Shown one piece after another: positions 59,879-59,918 of a stretch of DNA of 64,000 nucleotides. The notes beneath the pieces are model-generated. The model ran no database searches and was not told the DNA's origin. It worked only from the letters and a program-made list of their open reading frames with translations. The position numbers and the translations under genes are program-made. How positions within the stretch are numbered: the first letter of the stretch is position 1; each line of letters starts with the position of its first letter. The stretch is from sequence record MG748547. One strand, given 5' to 3'. This stretch comes from Escherichia phage EP75.

Positions 59879-59918
59879 CTAAATACCCCTAGATGACATG
59901 AATACATTTAGGGGTATT
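59879..59918 (+). promoter_or_regulatory. Late-type cassette CTAAATACCCCTA-N17-TAGGGGTATT before tailspike 1
   Basis: 10-bp stem 59882-59891/59909-59918. GGGG (59911-59914) is the only SD-like element, 8 nt before the ATG. Confidence 0.55.

Follow-up and report, generated by a model that had tools for sequence, protein, structure and literature searches.

The 64,000-nucleotide (nt) stretch of Escherichia phage EP75 analyzed here (sequence record MG748547; hereafter the window) carries three copies of a cassette in which a predicted CTAAATA late-promoter box is joined by a hairpin to the GGGG Shine-Dalgarno (SD) sequence of the gene that follows. The cassettes precede two tailspike genes (TSP4 and TSP3) and, on the minus strand, a gene for an ADP-ribosyltransferase (ART)-like protein. 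What is observed is their sequence and structure, selection for base pairing, and a likeness to the leader of T4 gene e. Our preferred reading, to which we give a probability of about 0.6, is that the cassettes are compact units for late-gene control, of the type known from T4 gene e. The window segment is 96% identical to the Salmonella phages SJ3 and ST-W77 (Kuttervirus, Ackermannviridae), and the exact CTAAATAcCcc-type motif is present.

The exact 11-mer CTAAATACCCC was found three times in the window (59879 and 63004 on the plus strand, 48525 on the minus strand) against 0.00 in 100 shuffles, and the paired pattern ATACCCC-N6-30-GGGGTAT also occurred three times against 0.00 in shuffles. 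Each cassette has its GGGGTAT partner with the ATG 5-8 nt further on, and the CTAAATA boxes lie 33-44 nt 5' of the ATG on the coding strand. These sequences are as the initial annotation had described them, and the shorter CTAAATA motifs that it had listed before the gp6 baseplate gene (56017) and the gp48 operon (11347-11353) are present as well. Its figure of three copies holds for the exact cassette but not as the size of a class, as the gp6 site and the site at 37941-37970 share the promoter/SD pairing. The count of the bare 7-mer CTAAATA in the window is not above chance (9 against 6.95 expected), and the motif with at most two mismatches is not enriched by count in the window. The signal resides in the exact 11-mer and its placement relative to genes, not in motif counts. 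Chance occurrences of CTAAATACCCC among the IMG/VR matches listed, used as a negative control, have no GGGG partner. Chance or pure paralogy was ruled out as an explanation, as the cassette stands before non-homologous genes and shows compensatory changes. The coordinates are collected in Table 1.

Table 1. Cassettes, hairpins and other predicted late-promoter sites in the window (aa, amino acids; ORF, open reading frame; z, z-score of the fold).
Feature	Position	Strand	Details
TSP4 cassette	59879	+	CTAAATACCCCTAGATGACATGAATACATTTAGGGGTATTACAAATG; ATG 59923; 1013-aa tailspike with Tail_spike_N
CTAAATA late-promoter box (predicted), TSP4-type tailspike gene	59879..59885	+	predicted -12..-6; predicted +1 59891 (+/-1); SPTD1 promoter 15
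TSP4 hairpin	59882..59918	+	5' arm AATACCCCTAGATG (59882-59895), 9-nt loop, 3' arm CATTTAGGGGTATT (59905-59918); GGGG SD 59911-59914
TSP3 cassette	63004	+	CTAAATACCCCATATTGGTCATCCTTTATGGGGTATTATCATG; ATG 63044; P22-type tailspike
CTAAATA late-promoter box (predicted), TSP3-type (P22-like) tailspike gene	63004..63010	+	predicted +1 63016 (+/-1); SPTD1 promoter 16
TSP3 hairpin	63007..63040	+	5' arm AATACCCCATA, structured 12-nt loop, 3' arm TATGGGGTATT; GGGG SD 63033-63036
ART cassette	48525	-	CTAAATACCCCATACAGTAAGTGTGGGGTATCTATG; ATG 48492; 149-aa ART-PolyVal protein
CTAAATA late-promoter box (predicted), ART-PolyVal (ADP-ribosyltransferase-like) gene	48519..48525	-	predicted +1 48513 (+/-1); SPTD1 promoter 12
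ART hairpin	48495..48521	-	5' arm ATACCCCATAC, loop AGTAA, 3' arm GTGTGGGGTAT (one G.U pair); GGGG SD 48498-48501; ATG 48492-48490
gp6 baseplate late promoter (predicted) and hairpin	56017..56059	+	CTAAATA 56017-56023; ATCTTCA.CACC pairs with GGTG.TGGAGAT; GGAG SD 56054-56057; ATG 56064
Canonical T4-type TATAAATA box	37941..37970 (box 37970-37963)	-	adjoining bases TCCTTGCTT form pairs with AAGTGAGGA, and the latter contains the GAGGA SD of a 55-codon ORF (ATG 37932); z -3.30
gp48/gp53 baseplate-tail operon late promoter (predicted)	11347..11353	-	CTAAATA; ATG 11309; SPTD1 promoter 9
CTAAATATCCC late promoter (predicted), 152-aa structural-protein gene (ORF299-like)	48040..48046	-	ATG 48007; ordinary GAGGA SD
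CTAAATA box directly 3' of tRNA gene	52651..52657	-	SPTD1 promoter 13 equivalent

The TSP4 stem has 14 base pairs (bp) and folds at -19.1 kcal/mol (z -4.94). The TSP3 and ART stems have 11 bp each and fold at -20.9 kcal/mol (z -4.53) and -18.1 kcal/mol (z -4.37), respectively, and the TSP3 loop contains an internal 2-bp helix. The pairing of the promoter C-run with the GGGG, as first proposed, is real, but its length had been understated, as copy-specific complementary bases extend the stems to 11-14 bp beyond ATACCCC/GGGGTAT. Because the conserved TAT after the GGGG pairs with the invariant ATA of the box, the full stem needs an RNA that starts upstream of the promoter. The GGGG is annotated as a ribosome-binding site (RBS) in phage Mutine. 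Rfam covariance models gave no match at the cassettes, and only three transfer RNAs (tRNAs) reached gathering scores in the window.

For the comparison across genera, tailspike regions were taken from five other genera (SKML-39, Kamild, 0507-KN2-1, phiMAM1, and phiEa2809). A cassette lies 5' of the first tailspike gene in all five, with compensated variants of the inner stem among them (TAGATG/CATTTA, TAG/CTA, TAATG/CATTA, and TAGAA/TTCTA). We then aligned 27 distinct cassettes from Kuttervirus, Agtrevirus, Limestonevirus, Taipeivirus, Miltonvirus, and Nezavisimistyvirus, and 93.5% of the alignment cells were paired. Pair 12-37 is AU in 15 cassettes, UA in 10, and CG in 2; pair 13-36 is AU in 13, UA in 8, and UG in 6; and pair 14-35 is GU in 4, GC in 3, UA in 3, and AU in 1, with no unpaired case at any of the three. 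The covariation score was matched by none of 500 shuffles, and slid controls scored about 0. G.U pairs are present and A.C pairs never occur, which fits a sense-strand RNA. The TAT after the GGGG is kept in 26 of the 27 cassettes despite a varying distance to the ATG. Within orthologous sets, substitutions are confined to the loop and spare the stem; in the six ART-type orthologues the stem is invariant and the loop differs at four of its five positions. The hairpin is real, its pairing is under selection, and the cassette is present at the homologous tailspike loci of relatives with its pairing maintained, as the initial annotation required of a genuine element.

The TSP3 cassette forms an island of 39-58 nt that is 90-95% identical in Dickeya phage Kamild and Erwinia phage phiEa2809, with no detectable similarity in the flanks. 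The same degree of identity, loop included, holds for cassettes of this type (type B) among Kuttervirus, Limestonevirus, and Nezavisimistyvirus (window 63001-63057 against 22786-22824 and 30298-30354 in the relatives), and the flanks fail to align by blastn. The conservation of the loop (ATTGG..ATCCTTT) goes beyond what stem pairing alone explains.

The promoter motif itself was known before. 'CTAAATAcCcc' is one of two regulatory motifs typical of Ackermannviridae in the 'Viunalikevirus' description, as cited in PMC7283392. The GenBank record of Salmonella phage SPTD1 (OP991882.2) has twenty 7-bp features named 'Kuttervirus late gene promoter'. All but one of the window's nine CTAAATA sites have a counterpart among these features, including the cassettes (12, 15, 16), gp6 (14), and gp48 (9). 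The LIMEstone1 record (HE600015) carries a '-10 signal' on the same cassette. In the T4-like Aeromonas phage Aeh1, the late box is CTAAATA starting at -12, and the T4 box TATAAATA lies at -13 to -6 (PMC1524935). The SPTD1 record lists gp55 and gp45 homologues, and a gp33 homologue has been reported in the related phage AG3. Judged by its sequence, the cassette motif is a T4 gp55-type late-promoter box, and the likeness to the T4 late promoter and its CTAAATA variants seen in the initial annotation agrees with the Aeh1 box and with the SPTD1 and LIMEstone1 annotation. The 2024 review of the family Ackermannviridae nowhere mentions promoters or transcription. In OP991882.2, the plus-strand promoter features are correctly placed, and the minus-strand features are misplaced 6 nt downstream of the true CTAAATA (e.g., 45977-45983 and 126874-126880), covering ACCCCAT or similar.

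In T4 gene e, long early transcripts form a helix and lysozyme synthesis is about 100-fold lower, whereas RNA from the embedded late promoters does not contain the 5' strand and is translated (PMC3014915). We modelled the late RNA of the window cassettes with the T4/Aeh1 geometry, which sets the transcription start (+1) twelve bases after the C of CTAAATA. Given a box at -12 to -6, the predicted +1 falls just after CCCC(T/A), and the AATA of the box is part of the stem. Accessibility was expressed as the opening energy of the segment from the SD to the AUG; the probability that the GGGG is unpaired is uninformative, with weak partners present in C-rich coding sequence. The predicted opening cost fell from 17.3 kcal/mol in read-through RNA to 7.3 kcal/mol in late RNA for TSP4, from 19.4 to 7.4 for TSP3, from 18.3 to 5.6 for ART, and from 15.9 to 3.8 for T4 gene e. 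The ORF299-like control promoter, which has no hairpin, gave 3.2 and 2.9 kcal/mol. The predicted drop is 10-13 kcal/mol in the cassettes against 12 kcal/mol in T4 gene e.

In the mechanism that we propose, CTAAATA at -12 to -6 would be read by the host RNA polymerase with a phage gp55-like late sigma factor, as homology and prior annotation suggest. The 5' arm would consist of the box bases at -9 to -6, CCCC(T/A) at -5 to -1, and a few transcribed bases, and the 3' arm of the GGGG SD and TAT(T). RNA entering from the upstream gene would carry both arms and have its SD locked, at a predicted opening cost of 17-19 kcal/mol, whereas RNA from the cassette's own promoter (starting at about 59891, 63016, and 48513) would be free of the CCCC arm and have a weakly occupied SD (5.6-7.4 kcal/mol). 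The tailspike genes and the ART-like gene would then be translated essentially from their own late transcripts alone. Where a copy has a T-run, its hairpin may in addition stall incoming transcription or cause partial termination. The steps that we infer are that the promoters are active, where +1 lies, that read-through RNA exists, and how translation responds. The earlier suggestion that a late start would exclude the CCCC arm and free the GGGG agrees in silico with the T4/Aeh1 geometry, from which +1 is extrapolated, and with the gene e analogy.

Several observations bear on the parts of this mechanism. The co-directional upstream genes end 2-40 nt before each box, and the terminator scan calls none in between. 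A sigma-70 promoter scan of the window stayed at background level, so that early promoters feeding the read-through were not identifiable by it. In T4 late promoters, the sequence just past the box is AT-rich (PMC2988020); the CCCC is therefore unlikely to aid promoter opening and is better explained by pairing. SD sequences that consist of GGGG only occur in about 13 of approximately 193 SPTD1 genes and cluster at cassette promoters. T4 RegB cleaves GGAG in Shine-Dalgarno sites; GGGG is no target of RegB, which may additionally explain why the cassettes use this unusual SD. Vi01-like phages encode a RegB-type endoribonuclease, which was found by virion mass spectrometry (PMC10892097).

The pairing between promoter and SD extends beyond CCCC and GGGG. 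In a duplex test, the promoter region (-11 to +1) was paired with the SD region (-17 to -3) of its own gene (cis) or of other genes (trans) for 17 SPTD1 late promoters. The energies were -7.45 kcal/mol in cis against -4.32 kcal/mol in trans (permutation p<5e-5), and with the CCCC cassettes removed they were -5.28 against -3.09 kcal/mol (p=1e-4). The cis effect recurs in Kamild (p=3e-4) and 0507-KN2-1 (p=1e-4), and overall it is also present in phiEa2809. Complementarity of a promoter to its own SD is a general design and not a mere CCCC/GGGG coincidence. The gp6 hairpin of the window has the cassette layout with a different sequence (z -2.78), with a compensatory change of T-A to A-T in phiEa2809 (AACTTCA/TGGAGTT) and a change of T.G to C-G in 0507-KN2-1. 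The design is not found at every late promoter: the gp48/gp53 promoter has no cassette-type stem between box and SD (z -0.10), and the promoter of the 152-aa structural-protein gene (48040..48046) has no sequestering hairpin (z -0.59).

A number of points weigh against the gene e-type reading. No 5'-end mapping or transcriptome for Ackermannviridae late promoters was found in the searchable literature, and +1 was carried over from T4 and Aeh1. Upstream of the tailspike cassettes lie genes (the gp6 operon and other tailspikes) that are late themselves, so the T4 logic of silent early and active late transcripts is not directly transferable, and the hairpin would instead insulate against late read-through. 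Even in late RNA as predicted, C-rich coding sequence offers the GGGG a weak pairing partner, and the probability that the GGGG is unpaired is 0.01-0.03. Several orthologous cassettes end in TATTTT, one of them annotated as a terminator. For the gp6 hairpin, which is placed in a divergent intergenic region, an incoming transcript is not obvious, and the phiMAM1 promoters without CCCC show no cis duplex effect. Additionally, promoters of ORF299 homologues in Aglimvirinae and Taipeivirus have CTAAATACCCC with no GGGG partner, which means that the CCCC is not solely a hairpin arm.

The hairpin could instead be mainly an intrinsic terminator or a 3'-end stabiliser of the upstream gene, with the overlap of promoter and SD a matter of genome compaction, which we consider unlikely. 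The likeness to an intrinsic terminator lies in the A-rich 5' flank, the GC core, and the T-containing 3' flank: AAATA/TATTT resemble an A-tract and a U-tract, and CCCC/GGGG a GC core. In a biased IMG/VR scan that required GGGGTA, many unrelated contigs had AAATACCCC-stem-GGGGTATTTTT as plain terminators. Copies ending in TATTTT(C/T) occur at Kuttervirus TSP2, Taipeivirus TSP4, and the SPTD1 RuvC site (GGGTATTTTTATG), and the TSP2 cassette of Mutine, which overlaps its own RBS, is annotated as 'terminator'. The window cassettes differ from terminators, however, in a weak or absent U-tract, long loops, a fixed spacing of SD and start codon, and a promoter box in the 5' arm. Their tails are poor (TATTACAA, TATTATCA, and TATCTATG) and fall short of a T-run of at least about 5 of 8. 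Their stems have only four G-C pairs besides A-U pairs, and their loops are 9, 12, and 5 nt long; an intrinsic terminator typically has a GC-rich stem and a loop of 3-8 nt. The terminator scan skips all three, yet it calls terminators nearby (e.g., 47523-47549), and the swapped TSP4 module of Mutine is served by its own canonical terminator, which lies apart from the cassette, 40 nt upstream. Among the cassettes the T-run is not conserved, whereas the pairing is, and the SD always lies within the 3' arm, 5-10 nt from the ATG, which a pure terminator would not need. Partial termination and SD masking are compatible and may coexist. Two further SPTD1 late boxes, at about 60400 and 65560 on the minus strand (5' of ORF136 and ORF122), lie in the loops of terminator-like hairpins followed by T-runs (TCCCCCtaaatacaGGGGGAtttcttttt; GAAGGGCACtaaatatcacGTGCCCTTtatctttt), a point in favor of the terminator explanation; these hairpins are a different way to combine termination with late re-initiation.

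Even less probable, in our view, is that the box is not placed as in T4 and the late RNA keeps the whole hairpin, which would either stabilise the 5' end or be the operator through which a phage regulator of translation sets the dosage of tailspikes. Across genera, the type B loop (ATTGG-N3/4-ATCCTTT) is far better conserved than its flanks, a hint at a role besides simple pairing; with a T4-like +1, the inner stem would still be left as a small hairpin at the 5' end; and RegA-like and RegB-like proteins occur in these phages. Yet a stem of 17-19 kcal/mol over the sole SD would leave major structural genes very poorly translated when they are needed, the stem includes the box AATA, which lies at -9 to -6 in every T4-type promoter studied, and no candidate binding protein or motif was identified. 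The cassette might also be kept mainly as shared DNA for homologous swaps of receptor-binding genes, with an incidental RNA structure, and this we regard as the most improbable of the alternatives. In many genomes with a different TSP4, the downstream homology begins at 62975, at 62981, or exactly at 63004, the C of CTAAATA, and over about 240 records the left edge of the block takes these positions; relative to the variable TSP4 modules, the block starts in many genomes 11-17 nt past the stop codon or at that C. Some genomes share just about 60 nt, from 23 nt before the box to the ATG, and the TSP3 and TSP2 cassettes match over 65 nt at 92% identity. The other breakpoint, however, is intragenic. 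Homology between the window and Mutine runs from 56000 to 61367, the end of Tail_spike_N, and resumes at 62981. A 114-nt direct repeat of 88% identity (61264-61377 and 63407-63520) encodes the Tail_spike_N of both tailspike genes, and the breakpoint at its end makes this repeat, rather than the cassette, the 5' boundary of the receptor-binding module that is exchanged. Moreover, the downstream homology extends hundreds of bases into the N-terminus of the next gene and makes 40 nt unneeded, the cassette also precedes non-tailspike genes (ART-like in the window, RuvC and ORF035 in SPTD1), and compensatory substitutions and G.U pairs indicate selection on RNA pairing, not on DNA identity. Of the idea that the cassette supplies about 40 nt of homology for exchange, the downstream edge at or just before the cassette stands, whereas the upstream breakpoint lies inside the tailspike gene, where the 114-nt repeat provides better homology than the cassette would.

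Further sites in SPTD1 and in the window have related arrangements. At about 97520-97560 on the minus strand of SPTD1, 5' of ORF035, a cassette is built on a canonical T4 box (TATAAATACCCCCAAAATTGGGGGTATTTTATG) and has no promoter annotation in the record; with it, both box variants serve the same hairpin layout. At about 45958-45989 on the minus strand of SPTD1, 5' of a RuvC-like Holliday-junction resolvase gene, the variant CTAAATACCCATAAC...GTTATGGGTATTTTTATG forms a 13-bp stem. The start codon annotated for this gene, an ATGGGT within the stem, probably lies 12 nt upstream of the true one. In the window, an ATAAATA box at 51434-51470 on the minus strand is one mismatch from TATAAATA, and AATAGATC can pair with GGTCTATT. 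The latter segment overlaps the AGGAGG SD and spacer of a 77-aa ORF (51201-51434), and the fold is non-significant (z -0.96). Rfam places a cluster of three tRNAs at 51921-52733 (minus strand), and the CTAAATA box begins 4 nt after the tRNA at 52661-52733, so that the predicted late promoter abuts a tRNA gene. The ART-PolyVal protein (48043-48492, minus strand) matches PF18760 (E 1.6e-10), and its gene adjoins a structural-protein gene and lies behind a late cassette; the protein may be an enzyme that, like T4 Alt, is packaged in the virion and injected. Its upstream neighbour (48532-49857) has a weak, sub-threshold match to PALP (pyridoxal phosphate enzyme).

The initial interpretation is partly supported, in silico; its motif had already been described and its mechanism is a known T4 device. 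More speculatively, and with low confidence, the cassettes could be standardised, self-insulating expression units that provide the same promoter, the same SD, and a hairpin cancelling translation of the neighbours' transcripts. If so, each spike would be made in equal amount regardless of its position or the number of upstream promoters, and a receptor-binding gene could be swapped, with the cassette as the left edge of a conserved block, while the dosage of the others stayed undisturbed. The 40-60 nt island with 90-95% identity across genera and unalignable flanks would then reflect the insulating role. Kuttervirus and its relatives are being engineered by tailspike swaps to retarget the host range (PMC11721090, PMC12737597). 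If the spikes are translated only from their own cassette RNA, deleting, duplicating or separating the CCCC arm and the GGGG would alter spike expression predictably. The gene e-type reading would offer a first concrete hypothesis on late gene control in Ackermannviridae, whose transcription is hardly studied; it carries a well-known mode of T4 control over to another family, in which it takes the form of a conserved module present in several copies, with no new principle.

With regard to known systems, the Ackermannviridae CTAAATAcCcc motif is identical in sequence and positions to the window cassettes. The descriptions of it, in the parts cited, present the linear motif alone, without pairing to the SD, and the hairpin layer is absent from them. 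The closest counterpart is the T4 gene e leader (McPheeters et al. 1986; reviewed in PMC3014915), TATAAATACCTTC...GGAGGTATTATG (in full TATAAATACCTTC-TATAAATACT-TAGGAGGTATTATG), which folds at -14.9 kcal/mol (z -3.95). Set against the window cassette (CTAAATACCCC-loop-TAGGGGTATTACAAATG), AATACCyyC pairs with GrrGGTATT in both. In both, the late box is located in the 5' arm, the SD is paired with the five bases that follow the box, and the AATA of the box pairs with the TATT after the SD. The two are near-superimposable (AATACCTTC/GGAGGTATT in T4 and AATACCCC/GGGGTATT in the window), and their stability and predicted drop in opening energy are comparable. They differ in that T4 gene e has two promoters, the box TATAAATA, and a GGAGG SD, whereas the window cassettes have one promoter, CTAAATA, GGGG, and longer loops and stems. 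T4 gene e controls lysis, and the window cassettes sit at virion tailspike and ART-like genes. The incoming transcripts are early in T4 and probably late in the window. The window cassette is repeated near-identically at several genes, and T4 gene e was tested experimentally, whereas the cassettes are known from sequence.

The same device operates at T4 I-TevI/II/III, segB, soc, and 49 and at Aeh1 mobE (PMC2988022), where long transcripts are silent and late-promoter transcripts translatable, and Aeh1 shares the CTAAATA box. T4 gene 49 (endonuclease VII), a classic gene with a hairpin and a late promoter, is echoed by the cassette of the RuvC-type resolvase in SPTD1. The T4/Aeh1 endonuclease-type hairpins are individual, unrelated in sequence, and found mostly at homing-endonuclease genes in early or middle operons, whereas the cassettes are standardised, stand before paralogous structural genes, and are shared by six genera.

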